This document shows, piece after piece, positions 40,562 through 63,434 of a DNA stretch of 64,000 nucleotides (the stretch's first letter is position 1; each line of letters starts with the position of its first letter). Source of the stretch: Longimicrobiales bacterium (GTDB lineage Bacteria > Gemmatimonadota > Gemmatimonadetes > Longimicrobiales > Gaopeijiaceae); contig CAXXKM010000001.1 in assembly GCA_963664435.2 (NCBI GenBank), positions 640,001-704,000 of the forward strand, written 5' to 3'. A model generated the notes under the pieces. That model saw only the letters and a list, made by a program, of their open reading frames with translations. It did no database searches and had not been told where the DNA came from. The position numbers were made by a program, and so were the translations under genes.

Positions 40562-40688
40562 GCAGGGGAATATGACGGTCGCGGTGGCGGTCGGCCACCG
40601 GGCGCCGGACGGTGAGATCCGTTTCGGTTGGTCTGGCGTCCCGCCTGTTTTCAAGATTATCTTGAGTTCAGCCTACGGGAGGGGAGAG

Positions 40689-41856: not shown

Positions 41857-42013
41857 TTCGTGTGCGCCGCGACCACCGCGTCCGCCGACCCCTCTTAGGC
41901 GATCCTACGGATACCCGGATCTCCTGCCAACGCCCGCAACCGGGCGAAGCCGAGGAAACACTCCGACGCCGCCCCGAACCCCGACACCGACACCTCGTCG
42001 GGCTGAGCGTGAG
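41854..42013 (-). pseudogene. Diverged duplicate of internal tctC segment 39861-40044
   Basis: Alignable by eye in the same orientation, with a 24-bp deletion between gcgccgcg repeats. Confidence 0.88.
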
Positions 42014-43956: not shown

Positions 43957-46900
43957 TCACGACGGCTCCCCCGCCCGCGCCAGCAAGTCTGCGAAGTTGT
44001 ACAGAACGCCGGTCGCGCCAAAATCCGGCTCTCGCCGGAAGGGGTGTCGTAGGTAGTGGACCCGGTGTCCACCCTTCTCCAGGAACTCCACGATTGCCAG
44101 GATGTAGTCATCTGGCTTGTTGAGGGAAAACAGAATCTCGTTTCGGGTGACCGTGATCGTCGGTGCCCCCTCCACCCGGCCCTTCACCTCAATGAACCGA
44201 AGCCGACCCGTTTCGGGGACCCGGCTCTCAATGTCGTACCCCAGCTTCTCGAACTCCCGGTCCGTGGGATCGAACCCCATACCGCGCTCGACATCCATGA
44301 TGATTTCTCGGGCGCGAGCCGCGATGGCCTGCGTATCGGTGACTGCAGCCGTCTTCTTCTCTTGCCGCCCGGCGATCCTGTCCAATAGCCCCTTGGGCAC
44401 GACCAGCATTCCGCCCAGCACGACCGGTGGCCCGGCTGAGATCCGCCGCGCCAGAGCCAGCTCTTCGAGCCGTTCCTGCAACCTGGCCTGCAACTGGTCG
44501 GCGCGCTTCGCCGCCTCACGTGAATTGAGCCGCGCGTTCGGGTGACCCGCCTTCTCGCGGAGCTTCAAGTCCTCGGCACGGTGGTCCCAGTAGGAGATTT
44601 CCTTCGTGAGCCGATCCTTGACTGCCGCCTCGGTCTTGTCGATGGCCGACATCCTGGCATCTCGAATCTCCCTCAAGTGCTCTGGCACCACATGCGCAGC
44701 AGCATACGCCTCGGCCTGACCCTCAAGCTCCTGGTTGATCCAGGCACAATCGGGGAGGCCGAGGATGTCGTCGGGCCAGGGTTCGTCCGGGGCGAGCGGC
44801 CGGAAGTCGAGGTATGGAGCGTACCGCACGTGGCCCCGCGCACCTTCCGGGCCAAAGTCGAGGTAGATCATCTGCTTTGAGATGATCCGCTCCTCACCCG
44901 CTGGCGTCGGTCGGCCGTCGTGAACCGAGTGCTCAAGGTAAAGGAGGACACGCGCTTCCACGCCGTGGTCGCTTTCGTCGACCAACACTGCACCACGCTT
45001 CAAGAGGGTGCGGTTCCGCTCCAGAGTCAGATCGAGCACGGCGTCGAGTAGCGGGTGACCCGGACAGACGAAGGCGGCTTGCGCCTGTCCGCGCGGTGCC
45101 ACCAGAGCCTTCTCGAACGCGATGCGCTCGTAGCGGACGGATACAGGCTCGCGCGCGCCCATGTCCCTGGCACGCTTTCGCACAGCAGCGGGCACCCGCG
45201 AGATCTGATACCGGCGCGGCTCGCGCTGCCTGGCCGAACCACCCAGTTGCTTGAACGCCGCCAAGAAGAACGATTCGATGAAATGGGGCTGCAGGCGTCT
45301 CGCGTCTGCACGTTCCATCTCTTCTCGGACCGCGTGCAGGCGGCTGGTGTCCATCGAGTCCTTGGCCAAAGCGTGCTCATACATGAGCCCACGCAACCGG
45401 TCCCGATCCAGCGCCTGGGAGACCACGGTGTTGAGATGGGCCCGCACCTCCGGCCTCTCCCCAAAGCGAATCGCCCTGACCAGGAGGTCCTTCAGGGACC
45501 GTCCCTCGAACTGGACCTGTCCGAGCACATCGAAGACCTGCCCGCCCAGAGCTTGCCGCTCGGTCTCCAGCTTGTCAAGCAGCGTGCGGTAGACCTTGCC
45601 TTCCCGCGTGTCTTCGGCGAGGAGATTCCACAGGTGACAGACTTCGGTCTGACCGATGCGATGGATGCGTCCGAAGCGCTGCTCCAGCCGATTAGGGTTC
45701 CACGGCAGATCGTAGTTCACCATCAGATGGGCGCGCTGCAGGTTGATCCCCTCGCCAGCCGCATCGGTGGCGAGCAGCACCCTGACCTTGGGATTGTGGC
45801 GGAAGGCTTCTTGCGCCTCCAGCCGGTTGGGCCGGTTCAGCCCTCCGTGAATGACAACCACGGCCTCGGGTCGCCCGATCAACGTGGTGATCCGGTCGTT
45901 CAGGTAGTTGAGCGTGTCCTTGTGTTCGGTGAAGATGACGAGCTTCTGACCCGGCGAAGGCTTGGGTGGCGGGACATCGCCCGCTCCGTAACGAACTGCG
46001 GGCTCGTTGATCCGGGACGCGAGAGCCGCCGGGGTGAAGATCTTGCCAAGAAGGCCAGCCAACTCCCGCCACTTGGTGTCGTCGCTGCGGTTCAGGACCT
46101 GTCGAGCAAGCTGCTCAAGCCCATGCAGCGTGTCTATTTCCGCCCGAAGTTCATCGATTGACCTGGCGGCCGTGGCCCGATCCATCACCTCGGCTTCGGT
46201 GGCTTCGAATTCGCCCTCGGGAGCATCTTCCAGATCTTCGAGGTCTTCCAAGTCCAGTTCGGGAGCGCCGAACACCGGCGGGTAGCCAGTTGTCGCATCC
46301 CGGAGCTGTTCCAATTCCTTCAGCCGGTCCTGGAGGCGATGCCGGCGCCTTAGCAGCGATTGGTAGATTGCCTGGGGCGATGAGGCGAGTCGGCGCTGGA
46401 GGATCGTCAGGGCGAACCCGACGGTTGTGCGCTTCTTTCCGTCGAGCCTCTCGGCACGATCGAACTCCCGTTGTACGTAATGAGTGACCGCGTCGTACAG
46501 AGAAGCCTCGGCGGACGAGAGCTTGTAAGGGACCGTGTAGGCCCGGCGCACCGGGAAAAGCGGAGTGCCGTCGAACTTCAGCAACTCTTCCTTCACCATG
46601 CGGCGCATCAGATCCGAGGTATCGGTGCGGTGAACGCCGGTGCGGAAACGGCCCTCGAACCGATCGCCGTCCAGCAACGCCATGAAGAGTTGGAAATCGT
46701 CCTCCTTGCCGTTGTGCGGCGTCGCCGTCATGAGGAGGAAGTGGCGGGTCAGGCGGCCGAGGAGCTGTCCCAAGTGGTATCGCTTCGTGTACTTGACCTT
46801 CCTACCGAAATAGGTCGCCGACATCTTGTGCGCTTCGTCGCACACGATCAGATCCCAGCGGCAATCCGGCGCTTTCAACAACTCCTGGACCTCTTCGTTA

Positions 46901-47526
46901 CGGGACAGCATATCCAGGCGCGCGATCACCAAATCGTTCTTCTCAAACCAGTTCTCCGGCCGCGCCGCTTGTAGTGCCTCGCTGGTGTAGAGCGCAAAGG
47001 CAAGATGGAAGCGCGTCTCAAGTTCCTCCTGCCACTGCTCGGCCAGGCTGCCGGGACAGACGACCAGACAGCGCTCGAGGTCTCCGCGGGCGATCAACTC
47101 CTTCATGAGCAGCCCCGCCATGATCGTTTTCCCGCTCCCGGGATCGTCGGCGAGCAGGAAGCGGAGGGGCTGGCGGGGCAGCATCGACTCATAGACGGCC
47201 GTGATCTGATGGGGAAGAGGCTCGACCAGGGACGTATGGACTGCGAGGAGGGGATCGAAAAGGTGAGCGAGGCGGATGCGCTGGGCTTCGGAGACGAGGC
47301 GGAAAAGAGCACCGTCGGCGTCGAAGGCCCACGGGCGGGCGTGAGCGCTGGCTTCGAGGCTGGTTTCGTCGCTCCGGTACAGGATCTTGGTGTTGACCGC
47401 ATCCGAGAGGGTCCGATAGGTGACCTGAACGGCCTGTGATCCCAACCACTTCGTGGCCAAGATCGTCACGGGTCCTTCCGGGTCAATACCCTCTACTGCA
47501 GCGTGCTGAAGGTTTTCGAGCTTCAC
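43957..47526 (-). CDS. SNF2 helicase with C-terminal DUF3883 nuclease-like domain
   Basis: LADDPGSGKT, DEAH, TATPH, EQRFGRIHRIGQ, GYDIES..FIEVKG. Confidence 0.93.
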   Translation of the reverse strand: MKLENLQHAAVEGIDPEGPVTILATKWLGSQAVQVTYRTLSDAVNTKILYRSDETSLEASAHARPWAFDADGALFRLVSEAQRIRLAHLFDPLLAVHTSLVEPLPHQITAVYESMLPRQPLRFLLADDPGSGKTIMAGLLMKELIARGDLERCLVVCPGSLAEQWQEELETRFHLAFALYTSEALQAARPENWFEKNDLVIARLDMLSRNEEVQELLKAPDCRWDLIVCDEAHKMSATYFGRKVKYTKRYHLGQLLGRLTRHFLLMTATPHNGKEDDFQLFMALLDGDRFEGRFRTGVHRTDTSDLMRRMVKEELLKFDGTPLFPVRRAYTVPYKLSSAEASLYDAVTHYVQREFDRAERLDGKKRTTVGFALTILQRRLASSPQAIYQSLLRRRHRLQDRLKELEQLRDATTGYPPVFGAPELDLEDLEDLEDAPEGEFEATEAEVMDRATAARSIDELRAEIDTLHGLEQLARQVLNRSDDTKWRELAGLLGKIFTPAALASRINEPAVRYGAGDVPPPKPSPGQKLVIFTEHKDTLNYLNDRITTLIGRPEAVVVIHGGLNRPNRLEAQEAFRHNPKVRVLLATDAAGEGINLQRAHLMVNYDLPWNPNRLEQRFGRIHRIGQTEVCHLWNLLAEDTREGKVYRTLLDKLETERQALGGQVFDVLGQVQFEGRSLKDLLVRAIRFGERPEVRAHLNTVVSQALDRDRLRGLMYEHALAKDSMDTSRLHAVREEMERADARRLQPHFIESFFLAAFKQLGGSARQREPRRYQISRVPAAVRKRARDMGAREPVSVRYERIAFEKALVAPRGQAQAAFVCPGHPLLDAVLDLTLERNRTLLKRGAVLVDESDHGVEARVLLYLEHSVHDGRPTPAGEERIISKQMIYLDFGPEGARGHVRYAPYLDFRPLAPDEPWPDDILGLPDCAWINQELEGQAEAYAAAHVVPEHLREIRDARMSAIDKTEAAVKDRLTKEISYWDHRAEDLKLREKAGHPNARLNSREAAKRADQLQARLQERLEELALARRISAGPPVVLGGMLVVPKGLLDRIAGRQEKKTAAVTDTQAIAARAREIIMDVERGMGFDPTDREFEKLGYDIESRVPETGRLRFIEVKGRVEGAPTITVTRNEILFSLNKPDDYILAIVEFLEKGGHRVHYLRHPFRREPDFGATGVLYNFADLLARAGEPS

Positions 47527-47550
47527 AGGGTTAGCATCCGCCTCGGTCTT

Positions 47551-49944
47551 TCAGGCTGCCATTCGCCAACCCGAGCTGATGCGACCGGTCCTCGTCCGCT
47601 CGCTCGATCCACCAAACTGGATGCGCCCAGCGCGGAACCTCCCGTAGCGGGTGTATACCGCCATGCCGGGGCCGATGGCTGCCTGCGCGAGGTCTACGGG
47701 GGCGATGTTGCCGGACTGGAGGAGGTAGAGGGCTTGCGGGAGTTCGGAGCGGAGGGCGGTGAGGAATTCGCGGCGGGTGGCGAGTGGGGCGTTGGCGGGC
47801 CGGCGGCGGCAGACGAGGACGATGCTGGAGGCGAGGGCGTTGGTGCCTCTGCTGATCATGCGATTCGCGAGCTCGGTTCGGATCGGCCAAGTGCCGGTGA
47901 TTGCGAAGCCCGAGCCGATCGCAGCATCCAAGAAGGTCTCCCAGCCGGTGCTTGAAGTCCCTGAGTTGCCCCTCGTCTCTACTTGCTTGAAGGCGTAGTA
48001 GACGGTGATCGGGAATACAGGGTGCGCCTGTTCTGCAAGCCGACTAAGCGCTCGCCTCATGCCAGTGAGGAAGTAGTCCTCAGCGGCGTCCTTTGACCCG
48101 TGTCTGTACGGTGTCGCAACGAGTTCTTCCGCTTTCGGAACCGCTAGCGTGCCGAACAGGTGCGGAAACACGGGTTTCAGGGTGCGTCGTAGCCAAACAT
48201 AGAAGAAGTCCGAGAGATCGGCGTATCCAACGTTGTCGTAGTATGGGGGGTCAGTCGAAACAACTGGCGCGTCACGCCACACTTCATCCTGGGCCGCGGC
48301 TTGGTAGGCTCGACCGAGTCTGCCTGGATACAGCCGGTCCAGGACTCGCATCATATTATTGAGCGAGGTGAGAAGGTCTCCGGCCATACCTCCGAAGACA
48401 TTGGCCTCAGAATAGTCCCAGACCATCGGCAGGGCCTGTCGACCAAAGGTGCCAATCGACTGATTCATCGTACTCTTCCACCGACATAGCGACGATTGAG
48501 CATCGGACAGCTTGCTGACGCCCAACGCCAGATACAGGGCCACAGCCTCGGCGTACGCGCGCGCGCCTGTGCCGCCGTTGCGCAGGGGCAGGTCGTCGTC
48601 AGGAAGGCCTGCGGCTACCGCGTCCCGCCGGATCTGCTGGGTTGCTTCGCCGACGAGATCGGAAAAGGTGGTCAGGGCGACGAGCTGACGCGGCGTGAAG
48701 AGGTCCCGCCACCGAAGCATTCCATATTGCTGAACCCGGAATCCAAGTGCCCGATCCGGCAGGCGCGCCTCTGGTACTCGTTGTGGCTGAGCGCTTCGGG
48801 CGATTACGTCCATTTCCCGTGTTGGCGCCAAGTAGACCCGGCCACGATCACCCTGCGCCACGATGGACATTAGCCGGCTACCCATTCGACCCGCTTTGGC
48901 CTCATCCCTGAGGTACGCGAATGGCATAGGTGCTCCAGACATCATGCACAGGAACTGACTGCCGCTACCGCCGGACTTGGTCCCTCTCCTGCGTAGGGCG
49001 AGATCAGGCGGAGGCCCCGATTTGACCCGGAACCGATACCTCCGTCCCTCAATCACCGGCTCGATATACGCCTCCTTGCCCTTCTTGGTCGACAGCATCC
49101 ATGTGGAAGCAAGCGGAACCTCGACATCAACGAACGCCGGGTTCGGGCTACGCACGGTGCGCGCCCAAAGCCACGCAATCACTGTCAGATTCCGCCCTAG
49201 GTACGGCTTCAGATCCGACCGCTCATTGACCATCTCCGGGGTCACTTCAACCTGCGGGTACAGGTGACCGATCCGGCGTTGGGCCTGGTCGCGCATCCAC
49301 TGCCCGTAGTGCCGGACATCCTCGGCCAGCCCACGGCCGCCTTCCCACTGTCGCTCAACCAGCTCGGCCGCGGATAGCGCCTCCTGGTTGACCGGGGGGG
49401 TGCCGGCGAATCTCGGAGGAATCTCGATCATCGCCTTGCAGATCAGGACCGCCACAGGGTTGAGGTCGCTGGCGTATGCCTCCAACCCGAGCCGTTGCGC
49501 CTCCAGCGGGAGGGCCCCTCCTCCGGCGAAGGGATCGTGGAAGGCCGGCAACTGATCCGGGTTGAACAACTCTTGGGCGCGGGGGTGGCCAGCGTTGGCC
49601 CGGCAAGTTCGCTGCCAGCTCCTATGAATCTCATGGCGTGCCCGGGCGAGCAGATCCTCGTTCGTCGTGTTCTCCCACCGCACCAGCCGCTCCAGAATCC
49701 CGAATAGCCGATCCCGTTCGCGCTCTTGAGACTCCTTGGTGGGGAACCGCTCCGGGTCCGCAGACGGATCGTCCACCATCTGGGCGAAGATGACCGCCCG
49801 CGCGGCGGCCAAAGGTCGTCGCGCCCACCACAGGTGCAACGTGCTGGGATGACCGTGCCGGATGGACTTCTCCCGTCTTGACGCTGAGTTGATTGCGTCG
49901 AGGGGCAGAGCTACCTCAATGAGCTTTTTTCGGGACACCGTCAT
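47551..49944 (-). CDS. DUF1156 adenine MTase copy A, C-terminally truncated
   Basis: [30 protein letters not shown]; homology to copy B stops at YTRYG, followed by an unrelated 29-aa tail. Confidence 0.92.
47640..47664 (-). repeat. Outer inverted repeat, left copy (25 bp)
   Basis: Reverse complement atggcggtatacacccgctacggga equals 54342-54366. Confidence 0.95.
48611..48660 (-). repeat. Inner inverted repeat, left copy (50 bp)
   Basis: Perfect reverse complement of 53349-53398. Confidence 0.95.
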
Positions 49945-50047
49945 CAGCGCGTCCGATCCTTATCGAAGAGTCTCGCCAATACCGCGGACGGCGCGTCCGC
50001 GACCTGCGCGCATGCTCCGCCCGCAACACATCGAAGGGAGGAGCACC

Positions 50048-50938
50048 ATGCCCACCACCAGTTTCAGCGGCGGATCAACCGCCCCCAAGCCGATCCCTTT
50101 CGAGACGGTCGCGGAGAAAGCCGTCCGAAGGTACGGGCGCATGTGGAAGCCCGCTACCCTAAAGGTCAACCAGGTCTACTTGCGAAACCAGATCATGCCG
50201 TGGTTCCGAGGGCGGCCAATCGCCGACATCACGCGCGCCGAGGTCCGCCAGTGGTTCGGTACTCTACACGCCACCCCGGCCGCGGCAAACCGCTCCCTTC
50301 CGATTCTCTCCATCATCATGCGGCAGGCGGAGATCTACGGCTATCGGCCGGCAAAGAGCAATCCCTGCAGGCGGATCCGGCGCTACCCGGAGCGGAGGAG
50401 GGAGCGCTTTCTGAACCCCGGTGAGATTCGCCGCCTGGGCCGGGTACTGGCGGACACATCCATGAGAGCGCCCCTCCAGGTGGCCATCGTCCGGCTTCTC
50501 ATGCTGACGGGCTGCAGGCAGAGCGAAATCCGCACGCTGAACTGGGGTGACTATCGCGGAGGCCACCTCTTTCTGCGGGATAGCAAGACCGGTCCCAGAA
50601 CGGTGTGGCTCTCTTCGTCGGCTCGGCGCGTGCTCGACGGATTGCACCGTACGGCCAGCTGTGTCTTTCCCGCTGTCGGCCGTCCCGGATCGATGTCCAC
50701 GGAAACGCTCTACGGGTCATGGCGACGGATTCGCACCGAGGCCGACCTCAGCAGGCTTCGTCTGCACGACCTCCGTCATACCTACGCAAGCTTCGCGCTG
50801 CGGGGCGGCGAATCGGTGGTCATGATTGGCCGATTGCTGGGGCACCGGGATCCCGACACCACCCTCAAGTACACGCACTTCGGGGACGCGATGCTCAGAC
50901 AGGCGGTCGAGAGCGTCGCCACGGTAGTCGGGGAATGA
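50048..50938 (+). CDS. Tyrosine recombinase 1
   Basis: TGCR, SKTG, HDLRH, LLGH, KY; GGAGGAG RBS. Confidence 0.93.
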   Translation: MPTTSFSGGSTAPKPIPFETVAEKAVRRYGRMWKPATLKVNQVYLRNQIMPWFRGRPIADITRAEVRQWFGTLHATPAAANRSLPILSIIMRQAEIYGYRPAKSNPCRRIRRYPERRRERFLNPGEIRRLGRVLADTSMRAPLQVAIVRLLMLTGCRQSEIRTLNWGDYRGGHLFLRDSKTGPRTVWLSSSARRVLDGLHRTASCVFPAVGRPGSMSTETLYGSWRRIRTEADLSRLRLHDLRHTYASFALRGGESVVMIGRLLGHRDPDTTLKYTHFGDAMLRQAVESVATVVGE

Positions 50939-50941
50939 CCG

Positions 50942-51820
50942 ATGGCTGCGCCGAGCTTTGAGGACTTCGTGTCGGGATCCTGGAGAACGGCCTGCTACCA
51001 CCGTTGCAAGCCCTCAACCAGGCAGCGGTTGGATAGCGCGCTTCGCACGCAGTTGCTACCGACTTTCGGTGTACATCGGCTTGACGAGATTCCTCCCTCA
51101 GCGGTCCACGAATGGTTCGACCGCTACAGCCGGACAGCACCCGCGGGTGCGAACCGAATTCTCGACATCCTTAAGCAGATCTACAACTACGCGATCGAGT
51201 GCGGGCTCGTGGACGCGAACCCGGCCCACGGCGTCAGACACAATCCGAGACCCAGAGTCACCCGCTTTCTCTCGCAGGACGAGTTGGCGCGCGTGCACGC
51301 GGCACTGGATGCCCACAGAGGTCGCGGATCCGGTCAACAGCAGGTGGCCATCATCCGCCTCCTTCTGCTGACGGGTTGCCGCAAGGGCGAAATGGTGTGC
51401 CTTCGCTGGGACGAGGTGGACGGAAGGGTCCTGCGTCTGGCTGACAGCAAGACGGGACCGCGGACGGTCTTCCTGAGCAAGGCCGCCCGGGAGTTGATTG
51501 CCCGGCAACCGCGTACCGATAGCCCCTACGTCTTCCCGTCGCTGAAGGATGGATCCCGGCATCGATCCAACGAACTGTCCCTGTGGCGGAAGGTCCAGCG
51601 CGAAGCTGAAATCGACGATGTGAGGCTACACGACCTGCGGCACACCTTCGCGAGCCACGCGGTCATGCAGCGCGTTCCCCTGCCGGTCTTGTCCCAACTC
51701 TTGGGGCATAGCCGCGACCGGATGGCAATGAGGTATGCCCACATCGGTGACCGGGAAGCGGAGGCGGCCGCAGAGCGGGTCGGTACCCAGATTGCAGCAC
51801 TGCTGGGCGACCTTGGCTGA
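50942..51820 (+). CDS. Tyrosine recombinase 2
   Basis: TGCR, SKTG, HDLRH, LLGH, RY. Confidence 0.93.
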   Translation: MAAPSFEDFVSGSWRTACYHRCKPSTRQRLDSALRTQLLPTFGVHRLDEIPPSAVHEWFDRYSRTAPAGANRILDILKQIYNYAIECGLVDANPAHGVRHNPRPRVTRFLSQDELARVHAALDAHRGRGSGQQQVAIIRLLLLTGCRKGEMVCLRWDEVDGRVLRLADSKTGPRTVFLSKAARELIARQPRTDSPYVFPSLKDGSRHRSNELSLWRKVQREAEIDDVRLHDLRHTFASHAVMQRVPLPVLSQLLGHSRDRMAMRYAHIGDREAEAAAERVGTQIAALLGDLG

Positions 51821-52016
51821 GGTTCAAGCCCGATGTCGAACCGGTATCCGGTGCGTGGTGTGCAGCTTATGTCCCAAAATGACAACGACTTGACCTCACA
51901 CGTGACCACGCCCGCTTGGCGGGAAGCATCTGCGGGCCATTGACGAGCGAGCTTTGTGCCGGGCACACTTGTCAGCGATTCGTTCTATCGTTCGCCCCTG
52001 CAACCATACTGGCCAT

Positions 52017-54935
52017 ATGTCCCATATGGATTCCCATATCGTCCGGACTCCGCCCGTTAGCCAGCGCAAGAAACTCATTGAAGTTGCGCTCCCGCTCGAC
52101 GCTATCAACGATGCCTCGAGGCGCGAAAAATCGATCCGGCACGGCCATCCCAGCACCCTTCATCTCTGGTGGGCGCGCCGACCTCTGGCGGCTGCGCGCG
52201 CCGTCATCTTCGCCCAAATGGTGGATGATCCTTCGGAGGACCCCGATCGGTTCCCGACGGAGGAGACGAGAACGCGCGAACGGACGCGCTTGTTCCGGCT
52301 GATCGAAGAACTCGTGACTTGGGAGAACACGACGAATCAGGAAGTCTTGAAGCGCGCTCGCGAGGAAATCCTGCGAAGCTGGCGGAGATCGTGCGCTGAC
52401 AACTCAGATCACCCACGGGCGACGGAACTCTTCGATCCTGAAAAATTGCCGGCGTTCCACGATCCGTTCGCCGGGGGTGGTGCCCTACCGCTGGAGGCTC
52501 AGCGCCTCGGACTGGAAGCTCACGCAAGCGATCTCAACCCCGTGGCGGTGTTGATCAACAAGGCCATGATCGAGGTTCCACCGAGGTTCGCTGGTCGCGC
52601 GCCAGTGCACGCCAGTGCTCGCCCCGATGCACCGAGGACGCCTGGGGTATTGATCGATCGGGATTGGCGGGGGGCGCAGGGCCTGGCCGAAGATGTCAGG
52701 CGTTACGGCAAGTGGATGAGGGACGAAGCCGAAAAACGGATCGGAGGGCTGTATCCGAGGATTGCCGTGACCGGGGAAATGGCGCGCGAGCGTCCCGACC
52801 TGAGGTCGTATGTGGGCCGGGACCTCACCGTGATCGCGTGGCTGTGGGCGCGGACAGTTCCGAGTCCCAATCCGGCGTTCGGAGATGTGGAGGTTCCCTT
52901 GGCGTCAACCTTCATGTTATCGACCAAGAAGGGAAAGGAGGCATACGTTGAGCCGGTGATCCGGGACCATGAGTATCGGTTCGACGTTCGCGCCGGCCCA
53001 CCGCCGGCCCGCGCCGCAGCAAGGAAGGGCACGAAACTGTCGCGTGGGGCGAACTTCCGCTGCCTTCTGTCGGGCGCGCCGCTGGCACCTGCCTACATCA
53101 AGTCAGAGGGCCGCGCCGGTCGAATGGGAGCACGGCTGATGGCGATTGTGGCGCAGGGGGACCGTGAGAGGGTGTATCTGAATCCGACCGATGACCACGC
53201 GGAGACCGCGCAGCGGGCGCGGCCGACGTGGCGGCCGGATTTGAGTCAGCCCAAGAACCCCCGCTGGTTCTCACCTCCGGACTACGGCCTCTCCACCTTT
53301 GGCGACCTCTTCACCCCCCGCCAGCTAGTGGCCCTTACCACCTTCTCGGATCTCGTCGGCGAAGCAACCCAGCAGATCCGGCGGGACGCGGTAGCCGCGG
53401 GCCTTGCCGACGATGACGTTCCATTACGTGATGGAGGCCTCGGCGCGCGCGCGTATGCCGAGGCTGTGGCCCTGTATCTGGGCATCACGGTGAGTAGGCT
53501 CGCCAACCGCCAAGCCACCCTGTGCTTTTGGGACCGGATGCGCGAAGGCGTACAGCAGGTGTTCGCGCGCCAAGCCCTACCAATGGTTTGGGACTACTGC
53601 GAAGGTAATCCCTTCAGCGCTTCCAGCGGCAATTGGGTTGTTCAGTTAAAGTTTCCCGCGAAGATGATTGAGGCCGCCCCGGCAATGATCCCGGGCCATG
53701 CTGAGCAAGCAGATGCACGCGTGAGTACGTTGGCTTTCAGTCGAGTGGTTTCGACGGACCCTCCGTACTATGACAACATCGGATACGCGGATCTCTCCGA
53801 TTTCTTCTACATTTGGTTGCGTCGTTCGCTGAAGCCGTTGTTTCCCGGTCTCTTTGCCACGCTGGCAGTGCCGAAGGCCGGGGAACTCGTTGCCACACCG
53901 TATCGGCACGGAAACAAGGAAGCTGCAGAGGGATTCTTCCTTGAGGGCATGACCAAGGCGACCCGCCATCTTGCAGAGCAGGCCCATCCAAGCTTCCCGG
54001 TCACGATCTACTACGCCTTTAAACAGTCGGAGGGCAAAGGCGGCGCGGGTGTCGTCAGCACCGGCTGGGAAACGTTCCTGGACGGCGCAATGCGATCAGG
54101 GTTCGCGATCACGGGGACGTGGCCTATACGCACCGAAAACGTGGCTGCACTCAAGAAGAACGTCGCCGCCCTCGCCTCAAGCATCGTCTTGGTCTGCCGC
54201 CGCCGCCCCACCAACGCACCCCTCGCCACCCGCCGGGAGTTCCTCACCGCCCTCCGCTCCGAGCTGCCGCAAGCCCTCGACCTCCTCCAGTCCGGCAACA
54301 TCGCCCCGGTTGACCTCGCGCAGGCGGCCATCGGGCCGGGAATGGCGGTATACACCCGCTACGGGAAGGTACTCGACGCCAACGGACAGCCCATGAAGGT
54401 CCGCGAGGCCTTGGCCATGATCAACCAGATCCTCGACGAATCGCTCGCCGAGCAGGAAGGCGACTTCGACGCGGATACTCGCTGGGCGCTTGCCTGGTTC
54501 GAGGAGCGTGGCTTCGAGGAAGGGGAGTTCGGAGTGGCAGAGATGCTGTCCAAGGCCAAGAACACCAGCGTGCAGGGGTTGGTGCAGGCAGGAATCCTCG
54601 AATCGCGCGCGGGCAAGGTCCGCCTGCTGCGACCTTCCGAGTTGCCTGCGGAATGGGATCCGTCGACCGATATCCGGCTCACAACTTGGGAGATGGTCCA
54701 CCACCTGATTAGACTCCTCGAAAGCGACGGGGAGGTAGCGGCAGCGGGTCTCGTCAGGCACTTGGGGAGCGTCGCCGATGTCGCTCGCGATCTGGCCTAC
54801 AGGCTCTTTTCCATCGCGGAACGAAAGAAGCGGGCTACGGAGGCACTTCAGTACAACGGTCTGGTCGGAAGTTGGGCGGAAATCAGGCGGATGGCGGGCA
54901 CGGAGGCGGCCGCAGAACAGACGGAGCTGTTGTAA
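52017..54935 (+). CDS. DUF1156 adenine MTase copy B, full length
   Basis: Same motifs as copy A plus about 190-aa C-terminal domain; start 52017 or 52026. Confidence 0.93.
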   Translation: MSHMDSHIVRTPPVSQRKKLIEVALPLDAINDASRREKSIRHGHPSTLHLWWARRPLAAARAVIFAQMVDDPSEDPDRFPTEETRTRERTRLFRLIEELVTWENTTNQEVLKRAREEILRSWRRSCADNSDHPRATELFDPEKLPAFHDPFAGGGALPLEAQRLGLEAHASDLNPVAVLINKAMIEVPPRFAGRAPVHASARPDAPRTPGVLIDRDWRGAQGLAEDVRRYGKWMRDEAEKRIGGLYPRIAVTGEMARERPDLRSYVGRDLTVIAWLWARTVPSPNPAFGDVEVPLASTFMLSTKKGKEAYVEPVIRDHEYRFDVRAGPPPARAAARKGTKLSRGANFRCLLSGAPLAPAYIKSEGRAGRMGARLMAIVAQGDRERVYLNPTDDHAETAQRARPTWRPDLSQPKNPRWFSPPDYGLSTFGDLFTPRQLVALTTFSDLVGEATQQIRRDAVAAGLADDDVPLRDGGLGARAYAEAVALYLGITVSRLANRQATLCFWDRMREGVQQVFARQALPMVWDYCEGNPFSASSGNWVVQLKFPAKMIEAAPAMIPGHAEQADARVSTLAFSRVVSTDPPYYDNIGYADLSDFFYIWLRRSLKPLFPGLFATLAVPKAGELVATPYRHGNKEAAEGFFLEGMTKATRHLAEQAHPSFPVTIYYAFKQSEGKGGAGVVSTGWETFLDGAMRSGFAITGTWPIRTENVAALKKNVAALASSIVLVCRRRPTNAPLATRREFLTALRSELPQALDLLQSGNIAPVDLAQAAIGPGMAVYTRYGKVLDANGQPMKVREALAMINQILDESLAEQEGDFDADTRWALAWFEERGFEEGEFGVAEMLSKAKNTSVQGLVQAGILESRAGKVRLLRPSELPAEWDPSTDIRLTTWEMVHHLIRLLESDGEVAAAGLVRHLGSVADVARDLAYRLFSIAERKKRATEALQYNGLVGSWAEIRRMAGTEAAAEQTELL
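53349..53398 (+). repeat. Inner inverted repeat, right copy (50 bp)
   Basis: gatctcgtcggcgaagcaacccagcagatccggcgggacgcggtagccgc. Confidence 0.95.
54342..54366 (+). repeat. Outer inverted repeat, right copy (25 bp)
   Basis: atggcggtatacacccgctacggga. Confidence 0.95.
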
Positions 54936-54994: not shown

Positions 54995-56170
54995 ATGAGA
55001 ATCGAGAATATCGAGATCGAGAACTACCGGCTGTTTCGCCGCGCAGAGCTACGGAATCTACCCCGGCTCACCATCGTCGTGGGTGCGAACGGTTCGGGGA
55101 AGTCCACGCTCTTCGACGTGTTCACCTTCCTCAAGGATGCTCTCACCCACAACGTTGCGACTGCCGTAACGCGGCGTGGGGGGTTTCGGGAGCTGGTCTC
55201 GCGCGGGAGCGAGGGCCCGATCGGAATCACCGTCCAGTTCCGCGAAAGTGGTGGGCGGCTTGCGACCTACGTCCTCGAAGTCACCACCAGAAACGGTCGA
55301 GTCGTCGTTGGCCGCGAGGTGCTCCGGTATCGGCGCGGACGGTACGGGAAGCCTTGGCATTTCGTCGACTTCATTTGTGGCGAAGGATATGCCATCACCA
55401 ATGAGTCGGTCTACGGTCAGGAGGGAGTTCAGGAAGCGCGCGAGGAGTTCAAGCTCGACGATCCGAGTGTGCTCGCCATCAAGGGTTTGGGACAATTCCA
55501 GCGGTTTCGAGTGGTATCGGAGTTCCGTAGCTTGATCGAGAACTGGCACATCTCGGACTTCCACATCTCGGATGCGAGACCGAGCGTGGAGGCTGGATTC
55601 GCCGAGCATCTGTCCACCCGAGGCGACAACGTGGCGCAGGTCGCTCAGTACCTCTATCAGCACCATCCGGAATGCTTTGATCGAGTTCTCGAGGCGATGA
55701 GTTCACGGGTACCCGGGGTCAGCCGAGTCGAAGCAAGGCCGACGGAAGACGGTCGGCTGGTGCTGCGCTTTCAGGACCACTCGTTCCGAGATCCGTTCAT
55801 CGCCCGCTTCGTCAGCGACGGTACGATCAAGATGTTCGCGTACCTGATTCTCCTCTACGATCCCAAGCCGCATCCGCTGCTGGCCGTGGAAGAGCCTGAG
55901 AACCAGTTGTACCCGGACCTTTTGCTGGAACTCGTTGAGGAGTTCAGGGACTACGCGAGGCGCGGTGGCCAAGTCTTCGTTTCGACCCATTCTCCGTTCT
56001 TCCTGAATGGGGCCGGACTGGACGAGGTCTTCTGGTTGGCCAAGGAAAACGGCTTCACAAAGGTGCGCAGAGCGTCCACCGACGACCTGCTCAAGGGGTT
56101 GGTCGCGGAGGGCGACAAGTTGGGCACGCTGTGGAGGCAAGGTCTCTTCGAAGGAGCGGGACCGCGATGA
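54995..56170 (+). CDS. AAA_15/AAA_21-type ABC ATPase
   Basis: GANGSGKS, SDGT, EEPEN, STHSP. Confidence 0.9.
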   Translation: MRIENIEIENYRLFRRAELRNLPRLTIVVGANGSGKSTLFDVFTFLKDALTHNVATAVTRRGGFRELVSRGSEGPIGITVQFRESGGRLATYVLEVTTRNGRVVVGREVLRYRRGRYGKPWHFVDFICGEGYAITNESVYGQEGVQEAREEFKLDDPSVLAIKGLGQFQRFRVVSEFRSLIENWHISDFHISDARPSVEAGFAEHLSTRGDNVAQVAQYLYQHHPECFDRVLEAMSSRVPGVSRVEARPTEDGRLVLRFQDHSFRDPFIARFVSDGTIKMFAYLILLYDPKPHPLLAVEEPENQLYPDLLLELVEEFRDYARRGGQVFVSTHSPFFLNGAGLDEVFWLAKENGFTKVRRASTDDLLKGLVAEGDKLGTLWRQGLFEGAGPR

Positions 56171-56739
56171 GCAGAGTAGTGTTTCTGCTCGAAGAGTACT
56201 CGATGAAAACGCTTCTGGACGGGCTCCTTCCCCGGCTGTTTCCGCAGCTGGTGTTTCTGTGCGTGCCTCATGAAGGCAAGGGCGATCTGGAAAAGAGCAT
56301 CCCAAGAAAGCTCCGAGGCTGGCGGGAGCCCGGCGTTCGCTTCGTCGTAGTGAGAGACAATGACCGGGGTGATTGCCTTGGCCTGAAGAACCACCTTCGT
56401 GATCTGTGCTCCGTCCGCCCGGCCGAGGACGTCGTGGTCCGCATCGTGTGCCAGGAACTCGAAGCCTGGTACCTAGGCGAGCCCGACGCCTTGGCTGAAG
56501 CGTTCGAGAAGGAATCCCTCCGCAGGATCGGTTCTCGATCGCGCTTGCGCCAGCCCGATGCCGTCCCATACCCGGCGAAAGAGCTGGCCAGGCAGATTCC
56601 AAGGTTCCAGAAGGTGTCCGGTGCGCGTCTTCTCGCCGAACACCTTACACGCGAGCGAAACCGATCCCCGAGCTTTCATGCCATGATGGACGGCGTCGAA
56701 CGACTCGCCTCACGGCTTATCTCCACCCACCAAACCTGA
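56167..56739 (+). CDS. DUF4276 family protein (TOPRIM-like)
   Basis: LLEEYS, HEGKGDL, RDND, ELEAWY, NRSPSF; ATGA-coupled to the ATPase. Confidence 0.8.
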   Translation: MSRVVFLLEEYSMKTLLDGLLPRLFPQLVFLCVPHEGKGDLEKSIPRKLRGWREPGVRFVVVRDNDRGDCLGLKNHLRDLCSVRPAEDVVVRIVCQELEAWYLGEPDALAEAFEKESLRRIGSRSRLRQPDAVPYPAKELARQIPRFQKVSGARLLAEHLTRERNRSPSFHAMMDGVERLASRLISTHQT

Positions 56740-56742
56740 CAC

Positions 56743-59700
56743 ATGGCTATCACCAACCACGAGCGCGTCGGCAAGGCGATGGAGCTTCTCCGCGGCGGCC
56801 TGGGCTCCTTCGTTGAACGTGAAATCAAGACCGCGCACCCTCCCAGGACCACCGTAGCCCGCGAAACTCTTCGGTACTTGGACAACCACGAGCTGGCCAG
56901 GCGGCCCATCGCGGACTGGGACGCGCACGCGCTCCTGCTTCTGATGTGGAAGTCCTGGAACACGGTCTTCAGAACCACGCTGGGCCACGCCGAACGCAAC
57001 TATGTGTCGGAACTTCGTGACGCCAGGAATCGGTGGGCTCACCAGCAGAGCTTCTCCACGGACGACGCCCATCGCGTGCTGGACTCGACCCATCGGCTGT
57101 TGACGGCAATCTCGGCTCCCGAGGCGGCGGAGGCCGACAAGATGAGGATGGATCTCCTCCGGCGTCGGTTCAACGAGCAGGCTCGTCACATCAGGCGGCA
57201 AACAACCCAGACAGCCCTCGAAATCGGCGCCACATCGTCTCTTCCCGCTTGGCGGGACGTGGTTGACCCCCACCCGGATGTTGCGAGCGGCAGGTACAAC
57301 CAGGCCGAGTTTGCTGCGGATCTCTGGCAGGTGTATCGGGGAGAGGGCTCGCACGAGTACCGGAACCCGGTCGAGTTCTTCCGGCGCACCTATCTGACCG
57401 AGAGCTTGCGTGCCATGCTTATCGGCGCGGTACGCCGAGTTACTTCCGGCAGAGGCGACCCGGTCATCCAGCTCCAGACCAACTTCGGTGGTGGCAAGAC
57501 CCATTCCATGCTGGCGCTGTACCACCTCTTCTCGGGTACTCCTCCGACGAGCCTCGCGGGAGTCGATGAGCTTATGACCGAGGCCAAGGTCGCAGGACTC
57601 CCATCGGTTCGCCGAGTCGTCCTGGTCGGCAACAAGATCTCGCCTGCGCGGCCAGATCGAAAACCGGACGGTACGATTGTCCACACCCTGTGGGGTGAGC
57701 TCGCGTGGCAGCTCGGCGGCCGGGATGCCTACCGGAGGATTGCAGCTGACGACGAGAAGGGCACCAGCCCCGGTGACGCCATTCGCGGTCTGCTCAACGA
57801 CTTCGGTCCGTGCGTGGTGCTCATCGACGAGTGGGTAGCGTACGCGAGGCAGCTGCACGACCGCAGCGACTTGCCGGCGGGGAGCTTCGAGACCCAGTTC
57901 ACCTTCGCCCAAACCCTGACCGAGTCGGCGAAGGCGGCGTCCAACTGCCTCCTCGTCATCAGCCTTCCGGCTTCGGACACGGCTGCGGCGCCGCACACTC
58001 GGGCCGACGACGTGGAGGTAGGGGGCGTTCGCGGCCGGGAAGCCCTGAACCGATTGAGCAACGTCGTAGGCCGGCTGGAATCGGCCTGGCATCCCGCCAC
58101 GGCCGAAGAAGGCTTCGCGATCGTCAGACGGCGTCTCTTCGCGCCGATGACCGAAGAGGCGTATAAGCAGCGCGATGCGGTCGCACGGACCTTCGCGGAC
58201 TTCTATCGGCGCCAACACCAGGAATTCCCTGTTGAGTGCCGCGACGGGGAGTATGAGCGGCGATTGAAGGAGGCGTACCCCATCCACCCCGAAGTCTTCG
58301 ACCGGTTGTACGAAGACTGGTCCACGCTGCTGAGGTTCCAACGCACGCGGGGCGTACTGCGGCTGATGGCCTCGGTCATTCACAGCCTGTGGGAAAAGGG
58401 AGACAAGAGCCCGCTCATCATGCCCTCCCTGGTGCCGATCGACGATGCGCGCGTGCGCTCCGAACTCACGAGCTATCTGCCCGACCGCTGGGTGCCGATC
58501 ATCGAATCGGACGTGGACGGGCCGAACTCCCTTCCCCTCCGCATGGATGGCCAGTACAGCAACCTGGGCAAGCTGAATGCCTGCCGACGCGTTGCCCGGA
58601 CGGTCTATCTCGGATCCGCACCGCTGACGGAGGCGGCCCGAAAGGGCATGGACGACCGCCGGGTAAAGTTGGGGTGCGTGCTCCCGGGAGAGTCGGCAGC
58701 AATCTTCGGTGACGCCTTGCGACGTTTGGCTGGCGCGGCAACCTACCTATACCAGAACGGCCCCCGCGTCTGGTACGACACGCAACCCACGGTCACCAAG
58801 CTCGCACGGGACAGGGCTGCGCAGCTGGAACGCGATCCCGACAAAGTTGCCGAGGAGATTGGACGCCGCGTGCAGACGGATGCGGCGAAGCGAGGCGACT
58901 TCCATGGCGTCCACTGCTTTCCGCGCGAGCCGGCGGATGTTCCGGATGACCCGAGCGTTCGTCTGGTGATTCTCGGCACTGACGCGCACTACATCAGGGG
59001 TGGCAACAGCCCCGCTGAAGCTGCGGCTCGCCAGTTGCTGGACTCACGCGGGGCGGGGCCTCGCCTTTGCCGCAACGCGGTCGTATTCCTCGCGCCTGAC
59101 AGGACGCGGCTGCAGGACCTTGAGGGCACGGTACGAATGTACCTCGCCTGGCAATCAATCGTCGGCGAGAAGGAGACCCTGAATCTCGATCCTTTCCAGG
59201 TAAAGCAGGCAGAGACCCGTCTGAAGGAGGAGGAGGGACGGGTGAAGGGCCAGATCCCCGAGGTGTTCCAATGGCTTCTGGTTCCGGTGCAGAGCAAGCC
59301 GGAGGACCAGGTGGGCTGGGAAGCTATGCGACTGATGGGAACGGGTGAGCTGGCCGTCCGGGCGAGCACGAGGCTCAGGCGTGAGGAGCTACTCGTTATC
59401 AGCTATGGGAGTACTCGCCTCCGCATGGATCTCGATCGTATTCCTCTGTGGCAGGACCACGTGGAGATTCGCCAGTTGGCGGACCACTATTCGCGATACA
59501 CGTATCTGCAGCGAGTTGAGGATCCCTCGGTGATCGCGGAGGCTGTGCGCGATGGGGTCGGGCTGCTGACGTGGGAGACGGACACGTTCGCCTACGCGGA
59601 AGGCTTTGACGAGGAGAAGGGACGTTACCTGGGGCTCCGTGCAGGCGAGGCTTTGCAACAGCCCTTGACGGCCGACAGCCCCGGCTTGGTGGTTCGACCG

Positions 59701-60060
59701 AAGATTGCCCGGAAGCAGATGGATGAAGAGGTGCGGCCGGAGCCCGGACCGGGGCCAGGACCAGAGCCGGGGCCAGGGCCCGGACCGGAGCCGGGACCAG
59801 GACCAGGACCGGATCCCCAGCCGGCTCCGCGGCGCTTCCACGGAAGCGTCGATATCGATCCAGTCCGGGCAGGCAAGGTGGTGGGTCAGATTGCCGAAGA
59901 GGTCGTTTCGCATCTGACCGGTCTGGTGGGATCGAGAGTAGAACTAACCCTCGAGATCGAGGCGGAGATCCCGGATGGAGCTCCGGAGCATGTGGTTCGC
60001 ACCGTTACGGAGAACGCGAGGACGCTGCGCTTCACGAGTCAGGAGTTTGAGGAGGAGTAG
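56743..60060 (+). CDS. DUF499 AAA+ ATPase with N-terminal Swt1-like HEPN domain
   Basis: RNRWAH, LQTNFGGGKTH, LIDE, YPIHP, FQRTRGVLRLMA. Confidence 0.9.
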   Translation: MAITNHERVGKAMELLRGGLGSFVEREIKTAHPPRTTVARETLRYLDNHELARRPIADWDAHALLLLMWKSWNTVFRTTLGHAERNYVSELRDARNRWAHQQSFSTDDAHRVLDSTHRLLTAISAPEAAEADKMRMDLLRRRFNEQARHIRRQTTQTALEIGATSSLPAWRDVVDPHPDVASGRYNQAEFAADLWQVYRGEGSHEYRNPVEFFRRTYLTESLRAMLIGAVRRVTSGRGDPVIQLQTNFGGGKTHSMLALYHLFSGTPPTSLAGVDELMTEAKVAGLPSVRRVVLVGNKISPARPDRKPDGTIVHTLWGELAWQLGGRDAYRRIAADDEKGTSPGDAIRGLLNDFGPCVVLIDEWVAYARQLHDRSDLPAGSFETQFTFAQTLTESAKAASNCLLVISLPASDTAAAPHTRADDVEVGGVRGREALNRLSNVVGRLESAWHPATAEEGFAIVRRRLFAPMTEEAYKQRDAVARTFADFYRRQHQEFPVECRDGEYERRLKEAYPIHPEVFDRLYEDWSTLLRFQRTRGVLRLMASVIHSLWEKGDKSPLIMPSLVPIDDARVRSELTSYLPDRWVPIIESDVDGPNSLPLRMDGQYSNLGKLNACRRVARTVYLGSAPLTEAARKGMDDRRVKLGCVLPGESAAIFGDALRRLAGAATYLYQNGPRVWYDTQPTVTKLARDRAAQLERDPDKVAEEIGRRVQTDAAKRGDFHGVHCFPREPADVPDDPSVRLVILGTDAHYIRGGNSPAEAAARQLLDSRGAGPRLCRNAVVFLAPDRTRLQDLEGTVRMYLAWQSIVGEKETLNLDPFQVKQAETRLKEEEGRVKGQIPEVFQWLLVPVQSKPEDQVGWEAMRLMGTGELAVRASTRLRREELLVISYGSTRLRMDLDRIPLWQDHVEIRQLADHYSRYTYLQRVEDPSVIAEAVRDGVGLLTWETDTFAYAEGFDEEKGRYLGLRAGEALQQPLTADSPGLVVRPKIARKQMDEEVRPEPGPGPGPEPGPGPGPEPGPGPGPDPQPAPRRFHGSVDIDPVRAGKVVGQIAEEVVSHLTGLVGSRVELTLEIEAEIPDGAPEHVVRTVTENARTLRFTSQEFEEE
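59737..59808 (+). repeat. 3 x 24-bp repeat encoding PEPGPGPG linker
   Basis: Seen in the translation near the DUF499 C-terminus. Confidence 0.9.
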
Positions 60061-60181
60061 CGGGGCGCAGCCCCGGCGTAACCCGTGATCCGCTCAGGCA
60101 GGCTCTTCATAGTATCACCGCTCTCCGTCGCATAGTATCATCGCATTGCGGGGTCAAGACCTGCCCCGCGGAGACCCGCTG

Positions 60182-63100: not shown

Positions 63101-63434
63101 CGACCAGGTGAAGATGACGCCCGTCCAGGCGGAACGCGCCTCCACCCTCGGCGACGGCTTCGCGCTGTGCGTGGTCCCCCTCGATGACGACGTGCCGACC
63201 GCCGACACGATCCACGAGAGACTGCGTGTCGTGTTCGGGATCGGAGCGCGCCTCGAGTCGGCGCTGTCCGGCTACAAGTCCATGCGAAAAGCCGCGGACG
63301 CCGCCCGCGAACCGCGGGGCGCGGTCGAACTTGAGATCCGGGAAGGCGAGGTGCGCTTCCGGATCGGCCGTCCGGTCTGGGACGAAGGACTGCCGTTCCG
63401 TCAGGCAGTCGATCGGTTCGGAGGCCGCGACTGA
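60182..63434 (+). pseudogene. Sacsin/GHKL-like ATPase with C-terminal DUF3883-like nuclease, split by a +1 frameshift near 61061
   Basis: ELLQNARDA, HDGKPF, GQFGSGF; GSDFEV...IEVKS; removing one G restores LGLPAT-VNSRQFKP. Confidence 0.75.

Follow-up and report, generated by a model that had tools for sequence, protein, structure and literature searches.

A candidate nested invertible cassette for the methyltransferase of an Hma defence system in a Longimicrobiales bacterium

Background

The locus described here raises the question of what a defence system may do with two copies of its methyltransferase gene that point away from each other around two tyrosine recombinases. The window, that is, the whole stretch of 64,000 nucleotides that was analysed, is taken from a Longimicrobiales bacterium (contig CAXXKM010000001.1, positions 640,001 to 704,000), and all positions below are those of the window. 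The reading favoured here, to which a probability of roughly 0.78 is given, is that of a nested invertible cassette shuffling two target-recognition modules of an Hma methyltransferase. Hma comprises an SNF2 helicase-nuclease, a DUF1156 N6-methyltransferase and a HEPN-DUF499 ATPase (PMC8565338; PMC11232893), and has been placed among the systems related to Type-1 BREX (bioRxiv 10.1101/2025.10.09.681413).

Results

Identity and layout of the locus

From left to right the locus consists of hmaA, hmaB copy A, the two recombinases, hmaB copy B, a HEC-01 pair and hmaC. The product of hmaA (43957..47526, minus strand; 1189 aa) matches PADLOC HmaA over its full length (1602 bits), and by Pfam comprises SNF2 and Helicase_C domains with a C-terminal NOV_C (PD-(D/E)XK) nuclease. 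The product of hmaC (56743..60060, plus strand; 1105 aa; PADLOC HmaC, 1089 bits) combines a Swt1-like HEPN domain (Pfam HEPN_Swt1) with a DUF499 ATPase. Both hmaB copies contain DUF1156 and match PADLOC HmaB, with 1234 bits for copy A and 1497 bits for copy B. All three marks of Hma, namely HmaA, HmaB as a DUF1156 N6-adenine methyltransferase and HmaC as a HEPN-fused DUF499 ATPase, are present, and by its genes the locus is an Hma (Type-1 BREX-related) system.

The HEC-01 pair lies inside the system (54995..56739, plus strand); it consists of an AAA_21 ATPase (54995-56170) followed by a DUF4276 protein to 56739, and is missing from several relatives. The usual co-directional order hmaA-hmaB-hmaC, which is typical of Hma rather than a strict criterion, is not kept in the window, where hmaA sits downstream of the truncated hmaB arm on the opposite strand. 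In one relative (G256) hmaA is still on the strand of hmaC; in the window lineage it has turned outward.

An earlier note on this DNA had spoken of a 'DUF499/DUF1156/SNF2 restriction-like system'. The components stand, but the class is Hma by PADLOC and not the Gao-type DUF499/DUF1156 system. Membership of the latter was defined by scores above the curated cut-offs of NF042963, NF042962 and NF042964, and it was rejected on all three: 124 and 112 bits against 1000 for the first, 132 against 1200 for the second, and 161 against 1100 for the third.

The organism is probably sponge-associated, the stretch being present in a sponge metagenome run; in all, it was found in six of ten listed sequencing runs, with no RNA run among them. 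An HmaC fragment at 80% occurs on a Gemmatimonadota contig. No sigma-70-like promoter was found in 47300-52300.

Two hmaB copies and two pairs of inverted repeats

Copy A, the recombinase-1-proximal arm (47551..49944, minus strand; 797 aa), and copy B, the distal arm (52017..54935, plus strand; about 970 aa), are 68% identical over 770 aa. Copy B is full length as assembled; its start codon is uncertain, and is likely to be the ATG at 52017 or 52026 rather than the TTG at 51954. Both methyltransferase motifs are present in copy A, and its C-terminal 189 aa are replaced by an unrelated tail of 29 aa. This fixed 29-codon tail with its stop (47551..47639, minus strand) lies outside the invertible segment, and such tails vary between genomes; the fixed, single-copy C-terminal 189 codons of HmaB are at 54367..54935 (plus strand). 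The N-terminal part of copy A, with DUF1156, the SAM-binding motif, V1 and V2, occupies 48706..49944, and its middle variable module (V3 + V4) 47840..48527, both on the minus strand. The middle variable module of copy B is at 53482..54166 on the plus strand, with V3 at about 53482-53735, then the DPPY motif, and V4 at about 54110-54170.

The outer repeat blocks (47640..47839 and 54167..54366) are about 200-209 nt long and 89-91% identical, in line with the high-identity block of about 200 bp noted earlier. Each contains a perfect 25-bp core (47640-47664 and 54342-54366), the candidate crossover site, which occurs at only these two places genome-wide. The copies share 62-67% identity outside the blocks; past the outer repeat the value is 45.5% in gapped alignment, which is background, so the homology of copy A does end at the 25-bp inverted repeat, as had been claimed. 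The single repeat pair of the earlier note is thus present, but a second, inner pair had been missed. The inner blocks (48528..48705 and 53304..53481) are 86% identical, with exact runs at 48528-48552 (25 bp) and 48611-48660 (50 bp) on the left and at 53349-53398 and 53457-53481 on the right, and they encode a conserved helical spacer separating the two variable modules. Where the residues agree, the codons agree as well at 48 of 63 positions for the outer block and 40 of 55 for the inner one, as against 166 of 385 elsewhere, a difference beyond chance.

An outer inversion computed in silico joins copy A in frame with the C-terminal part of 189 aa and leaves copy B with the 29-aa tail, just as had been predicted for a flip of this 6.7-kb segment. 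When the outer inversion, the inner inversion or both are computed, the frames remain open and four full-length alleles are obtained, which measure 951-956 aa from the KKLIE motif onward and all have intact FAGGG and DPPY motifs; each of the four computed states also encodes a C-terminally truncated partner copy. Two pairs of inverted repeats inside paralogous coding sequences therefore give in-frame alleles. In the typical geometry of such loci the silent partner lacks its 5' region, whereas here the partner keeps its 5' end and lacks its 3' end.

Modules of HmaB

In a comparison of 120 HmaB homologues (42 close and 78 distant proteins), variation is concentrated in the short segments V1-V4. 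Pairwise similarity is linked within modules (r = 0.57 for V1-V2, 0.37 for V3a-V4 and 0.60 for V3a-V3b), with almost no correlation from one side of the inner block to the other (r = 0.02-0.07 for V1/V2 against V3a/V4, and 0.06-0.17 against V3b), and the pattern is the same in the close and the distant proteins. HmaB is therefore a two-module enzyme family-wide, with the inner repeat of the cassette in the spacer. Window-type modules on both sides are found in 5 of the 42 close proteins, as B+B (P0001, P0002), B+A (P0008, P0015) and A+B (P0005); A+A does not occur among these 42.

Judged by their position and by analogy with HsdS, the modules may read DNA. The insert that contains or adjoins V1, V2 and V3 has been called the target recognition domain (TRD) of BR/BREX-3 methyltransferases (bioRxiv 10.1101/2025.10.09.681413), and discrete module types recur and assort as the TRDs of HsdS do. 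In an AlphaFold model of HmaB (mean pLDDT 70.5, pTM 0.49) the methyltransferase core is not folded confidently, which leaves DNA contact by V1-V4 without structural support; the outer breakpoint lies midway through a helical unit (residues 727-804), and two long conserved helices make up the inner block. Searches with the model gave no match in Foldseek at E 0.001 or better and none in VIA-align at Z of at least 8, and PDB sequence searches with HmaB gave nothing useful. V3 may resemble the recognition hairpin of Dam, a likeness for which no search gave support.

The flips might be real and yet bring no defence-relevant change of motif, the modules tuning instead the binding of a partner or a phage protein, or some states being off. 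Besides the lack of structural support for DNA contact, this would agree with the report that HmaA alone restricts T4 and that HmaB had no detected effect, T4 from HmaB-overexpressing cells being no different against HmaA (PMC11232893). No HmaB methylation motif was found in the available text of the literature on Hma. The catalytic FAGGG and DPPY motifs, however, are intact in all four alleles, V1, V2 and V3 lie in or beside the published TRD insert, and the recurring modules assort like TRDs; a switch without change of motif is accordingly considered improbable.

The recombinases

Recombinase 1 (50048..50938, plus strand; 296 aa) and recombinase 2 (50942..51820, plus strand; 292 aa) are without an arm-binding domain. 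The start of recombinase 1 is most likely 50048 and not 49862, because an RBS-like sequence lies upstream of it and 116 of 120 homologues are no longer than 350 aa. Both enzymes keep the R-K-H-R-H-Y residues, which have the active-site roles in tyrosine recombinases, and these are invariant in four orthologues of each. Together with the Pfam and PADLOC assignments, this bears out the earlier description of divergent DUF1156 paralogues around two intact tyrosine recombinases. Recombinase 2 looks damaged in two relatives (G137 and G240).

The nearest relatives of the two enzymes are tandem integrase pairs of 370-400 aa that lie beside unrelated genes, with 52-61% identity. The arm-binding domain PF13356 is present in 14 of 17 integrases of such free pairs and in none of the 8 hmaB-linked or the 2 window recombinases. 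This speaks against an integrative element with an arm-binding integrase (0/10 Hma-linked recombinases against 14/17 free), and no direct att repeats around the cassette were found among the 20 largest of at least 60 direct-repeat families.

In a quick tree of 85 proteins, calculated without short or broken matches (the second recombinase of G137 included), the 19 linked first and the 18 linked second recombinases form one clade each, the former nested within the free first and the latter within the free second integrases, with SH-aLRT values of 99 and 98. This fits one capture followed by loss of the arm-binding domain. A simple invertase would be expected to have this form; arm domains are likewise absent from Cre, Xer and Fim-type enzymes. 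Since the integrases were already a pair before the cassette arose, the presence of two enzymes does not by itself imply two sites, and there may be one enzyme per site, joint action in the manner of XerC/XerD, or an inner flip driven by homology.

Of 30 cassette copies, 28 have A as the last base of the codon that precedes TAC at the outer site, as against none of 16 single-copy hmaB genes, a contrast that is not an independent test because the loci are related; chance pattern matches (three cassette rows and two single-copy rows) were dropped from the count. GTA makes up 28 of the 265 Val codons in the hmaB genes examined. These codons suggest a constraint at the DNA level on a short core at the outer site. 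No comparable codon signal was found at the inner site, and inspection by eye gave no convincing symmetric site or dyad common to the inner and outer repeats.

The segment might alternatively invert by homologous recombination over the 180-200-bp blocks, with the recombinases acting at the outer site only or being passengers. Consistent with this, the blocks are of considerable length and show patchy homogenisation, the inner block holds no DNA motif that is absent from single-copy genes, and the integrase pair is older than the cassette. In Streptococcus pneumoniae, moreover, PsrA drives inversion at a 15-bp repeat only, and the long hsdS repeats of 85 and 298 bp invert without it (PMC4948785), so that the inner flip here may likewise be independent of the recombinases. 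In that study, however, deletion of recA was also without effect (PMC4948785), and here both recombinases keep their active-site residues and are without arm domains at nearly all loci, while the outer breakpoint is sharp and under codon-level constraint. Homologous recombination as the driver of the switch is thus regarded as quite unlikely.

Distribution and conservation of the cassette

The layout of a DUF1156 gene, integrases and an inverted partial DUF1156 gene, for which the earlier note proposed a search, recurs: both arms and the recombinase pair are found in 12 other genomes (G003, G007, G012, G137, G255, G256, G289, G314, G635, G737, G739 and G741) and in 5 of 39 metagenome loci (L112-L115 and L117). 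Recombinase 1 has matches in 11 of 301 genomes of the family (the window genome counted), in 1 of 114 in a second family and in 8 of 401 in a sample of the phylum. A search with the 3' half of hmaB in one genus (53 genomes) added G733, G737, G739 and G741. Broken versions of the cassette occur in G240, G631 and L143/L144/L147, and in G015 and G733 the locus is a contig fragment that stops at the inner repeat. The truncated copies lose homology at or just past common YTRY codons (about 4 codons beyond that point in G733) and then continue into unrelated tails.

Elsewhere a single-copy hmaB is the rule, with 64 places in 62 plasmid records; a plasmid record with two hmaB places has no cassette within 15 kb. 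No intact cassette was found among the best 80 of 503 recombinase 2 loci in genome contigs. Viral contigs gave one distant integrase and five hmaB loci.

This recurrence bears on the possibility of an assembly artefact, which would suit a genome that is probably metagenome-assembled and the noisy copies in G635 (see below). Contigs from independent runs nevertheless span both outer junctions, the same layout is present in the 12 other genomes and 5 metagenome contigs, and outside the blocks copies A and B share only about 65% identity. Misassembly, named earlier as a finding that would speak against the cassette, is therefore largely ruled out by the bridging contigs and the relatives, and an artefact is extremely unlikely.

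Evidence for and against flipping

Within a locus, the two inner blocks are 82-98% identical and the two outer blocks 88-100% (window medians), as against 60-78% and 66-88%, respectively, between loci. The repeats are homogenised within each locus at both blocks, i.e., they undergo concerted evolution.

In one relative, G289, it is the recombinase-1-proximal arm that carries the full-length gene and hmaC, which is the orientation opposite to that of the window. Another, G635, holds both orientations in one assembly: the locus is present at both ends of a single 4,095,690-bp contig, in opposite orientations, with a 10,185-bp segment inverted at 98% whose breakpoints lie at the outer repeat. Between the two loci the flanks match at 100% in direct orientation, and the N modules and recombinases match at 98-100% in inverted orientation. 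In the four copies of the middle module, two alleles are blended and garbled, and this is confined between the inner and outer blocks. A blend in the middle module alone is what four coexisting states predict, whereas with one active inversion that module would remain linked either to its N module or to its flank and would assemble cleanly; simple mis-mapping is disfavoured because the equally divergent N modules assembled clean. The G635 evidence comes from one noisy assembly, which may represent a mixed-strain population.

Exchange between arms is also seen across genomes: the middle module on the full side of G314 matches that on the truncated side of G007 at 85%, against a median of 49%, and between L112 and L113 identity is 57-90% up to the inner repeat and 82-100% beyond it. 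Identical tracts between the arms of G137 and G289 (1201 and 817 bp) fit gene conversion or a blended consensus as well as site-specific exchange.

Among 14 loci with a scorable orientation, 12 are as in the window, one is opposite and one shows both; confinement of relatives to one orientation, which had been named as adverse to the proposal, is thus not what is seen, and the bias means that switching may be biased or slow. Of the 42 full-length HmaB proteins, 12 are presumptively paired with an arm-less recombinase 1, and 8 of these 12 have an N-terminus of the proximal-arm type, which hints that the opposite orientation may be common.

For the organism of the window itself, the search for both orientations gave a divided result. 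Contigs of run X1 bridge both outer sites in the assembled orientation. In contigs from four runs there is no opposite-strand joint at either repeat, contigs being a form of data that drops rare variants. Short-read contigs end at the inner and outer repeats, but breaks at the 50-bp repeat are uninformative because they are expected for any repeat of more than 31 bases. The end of one X4 contig coincides exactly with 47664, where a repeat shorter than the 31-letter word has its inner edge; this is a weak hint of a second allele, and related organisms could also cause it.

Two further signals in the runs were rejected. Joints on 'opposite strands' in the contigs lie away from the repeats and look like hmaB genes of other organisms, and the halving of X1 depth over the cassette carries no weight because variation of about twofold is also found among single-copy pieces in X4.

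The cassette of the window strain might on these grounds be frozen, or copy A might be a silent donor for occasional gene conversion. This would explain the absence of an inverted joint from the contigs of the organism's four runs, and it would sit well with the orientation bias and the degenerate versions in G240, G631 and L143. On the other side stand all four reading frames and both repeats, which are intact in the window, and the X4 contig end, which a second allele would give, with related organisms as its alternative cause. A frozen cassette is thus held to be highly improbable, and flipping may be active in the window strain.

Discussion

The comparative evidence is good that the locus represents a real, conserved cassette, an Hma-directed switch with nested geometry, and in one relative it supports both inversions. 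The invertible methyltransferase cassette of the earlier note is supported by the conserved layout and breakpoint, the concerted evolution of the repeats, and G289 and G635, and it appears to be richer than was proposed.

The proposed mechanism starts from an HmaB with two variable modules, N (V1+V2) and middle (V3+V4), which a conserved spacer joins. In the cassette, a domesticated tyrosine recombinase pair is flanked on either side by one N and one middle module in divergent order, and the fixed C-terminal 189 residues are present on one side only. Inversion at the outer repeats (6.7 kb) would exchange whole arms, and inversion at the inner repeats (about 5 kb) the N modules only, so that nested flips would yield four full-length alleles, B+B, A+A, A+B and B+A, with the opposite side always truncated. 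Both start codons are within the flipping segment, and hmaA and hmaC point outward on either side; both flanks could therefore stay transcribed in every state. The recombinases presumably catalyse the flips, at one or both of the repeat pairs. By analogy with HsdS, the alleles would methylate different motifs, and we infer that HmaB specificity steers the defence. The likely outcome is four methylation or recognition motifs within one population, which would serve as a hedge against phage carrying or avoiding one motif.

A more elaborate form of this mechanism would be a two-bit switch with one recombinase per repeat pair, in which the truncated copy acts as an active 'spare' methyltransferase. 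The truncated copy keeps a start codon and both catalytic motifs; two motifs would be methylated, and restriction would proceed only via the motif of the full-length enzyme. If this were true, the chromosome would be pre-protected before an outer flip, and specificity could change without self-attack. At present this form appears doubtful.

The nested cassette shuffling two modules, if correct, would add the widespread Hma/BREX-related class to those in which specificity is switched in a programmed way. One locus would supply a matched set of four natural alleles, with which self-marking by HmaB, the reading of a two-part motif, and the steering of HmaA/HmaC by the HmaB motif could be tested. 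It would also hold the record of a genomic-island integrase pair becoming a resident invertase through loss of its arm-binding domain. Furthermore, the geometry, with a partner truncated at its 3' end, start codons and recombinases within the flip and neighbours that face outward, is the reverse of that rewarded by a published genome-wide predictor, and more such loci may have been missed.

Comparison with known systems

Recombinase-linked shuffling of methyltransferases is itself already known from hsdS and pglX, as the earlier note stated, and also from DrmMI (PMC4948785, PMC9881135). Switching in the Hma/DUF1156 class, and the present geometry, were not found described among the matches listed in the full-text literature, which was mostly that of non-subscription papers. 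The word 'inversion' has no occurrence in the available text of PMC8565338, PMC11232893 and bioRxiv 10.1101/2025.10.09.681413, and eight supplementary files of PMC10028968 contain no DUF1156, PF06634, DUF499 or HmaB.

The locus resembles the described Hma systems (Payne 2021, Liu 2024), as far as their available text goes, in its core genes and in the accessory defence genes embedded among them. Elsewhere, however, Hma usually has one hmaB in the order hmaA-hmaB-hmaC (L028, L180, L182 and the plasmid records), whereas the window has two hmaB copies back to back, accompanied by nested repeats and recombinases, and an hmaA that faces outward.

The genomic-island integrase pairs (L032, L042, L116-L138) share the tandem order of the cassette enzymes, int1 grouping with the first and int2 with the second recombinase. 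They mostly carry PF13356 and have no inverted repeats in flanking methyltransferases, in contrast to the Hma-linked pair, which is without the arm domain.

Programmed inversions were reported by Milman 2023 in BREX-1 pglX, DISARM DrmMI-like and type IIG loci (PMC9881135). There, as here, inversion alters a large defence methyltransferase gene beside a recombinase. Those genes belong to other methyltransferase families, though, and typically the partner lacks its 5' region and the repeats are close together (PMC9881135); with its reversed geometry, the window locus would probably score low in the model of that study. The main text of PMC9881135 does not contain 'hma', the paper did not come up among those with 'DUF1156', and its list of about 11,000 predicted loci may include DUF1156 loci.

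The SpnIII/Spn556II hsdS locus (PMC4948785) shares with the window nested inverted repeats, two recognition modules, several alleles and an internal tyrosine recombinase. It differs in that a type I specificity subunit is shuffled and one recombinase is present, as opposed to a large methyltransferase and two recombinases, and in that its 5' end is fixed and receives 3' parts from silent copies; in the window the 5' parts would move and the 3' end is fixed. On the available text, the locus of PMC4948785 is the closest mechanistic model: the window locus works like it, outside that family.

Variation of the cassette among relatives

The G289 genome shows a third gene order of the Hma cassette, in which hmaA (the SNF2 helicase-nuclease gene) lies past hmaC and is convergent with it (G289:C1, ~456-472 kb). 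In another related genome, G240, the cassette is disrupted by IS copies (G240:C1, ~2.93 Mb; G240:C2, ~297 kb), the truncated arm and the recombinases being on one contig and the full hmaB-HEC-hmaC part on another.

The invertible core carries cargo in five database loci, L021 (3300-5000), L024, L026, L115, and L117, and in three related genomes, G635, G737, and G739. The cargo in these relatives consists of a protein of 554 aa that resembles ATPases, pairs resembling toxin-antitoxin modules, an ATPase of the AAA_21 type, and IS copies, and in L115 a nucleotidyltransferase domain is fused by read-through to recombinase 2.

On the 5' side of the distal arm (hmaB copy B), an AT-rich stretch with CATAT (52000-52060 of the window) is conserved at the equivalent place in G255, G314, G739, and G741, and may act as a promoter or operator. 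Relatives start the distal arm at a GTG codon; the corresponding codon in the window is GTT.

Flanking genes and distant loci

To the left of hmaA, a 150-nt direct repeat of 89% identity (39895-40044 and 41864-42013) flanks an RmrA/CapP-like HTH-IrrE/M78 peptidase gene (40560-41831), which is adjoined by a DUF6119 gene of low GC, 53-54% (42192-43760). Immediately 3' of hmaC on the plus strand is a TmtA (Tiamat)-like gene (60146-63434), which consists of two overlapping frames with a break at ~61.0-61.2 kb, each half matching PADLOC PDLC03967; the split reflects either a frameshift or a sequencing error.

Two more DUF1156/DUF499/SNF2 loci, both distant (~30%), are present in the same genome, at G000:C2 ~860-870 kb and G000:C3 ~53-79 kb. 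In the latter, a DUF1156 N-terminal piece (~74.7 kb) is separated from the remaining methyltransferase by 16 kb, an interval that contains an IS1595-like gene as well as a further gene resembling methyltransferases.

Origin of the cassette recombinases

Tandem arm-binding integrase pairs form a family (L032, L033, and L116-L138), often adjoining defence genes, namely type I HsdM, BsuBI/PstI R-M, and GmrSD. The cassette recombinases, which are without the arm domain, descend from this family.
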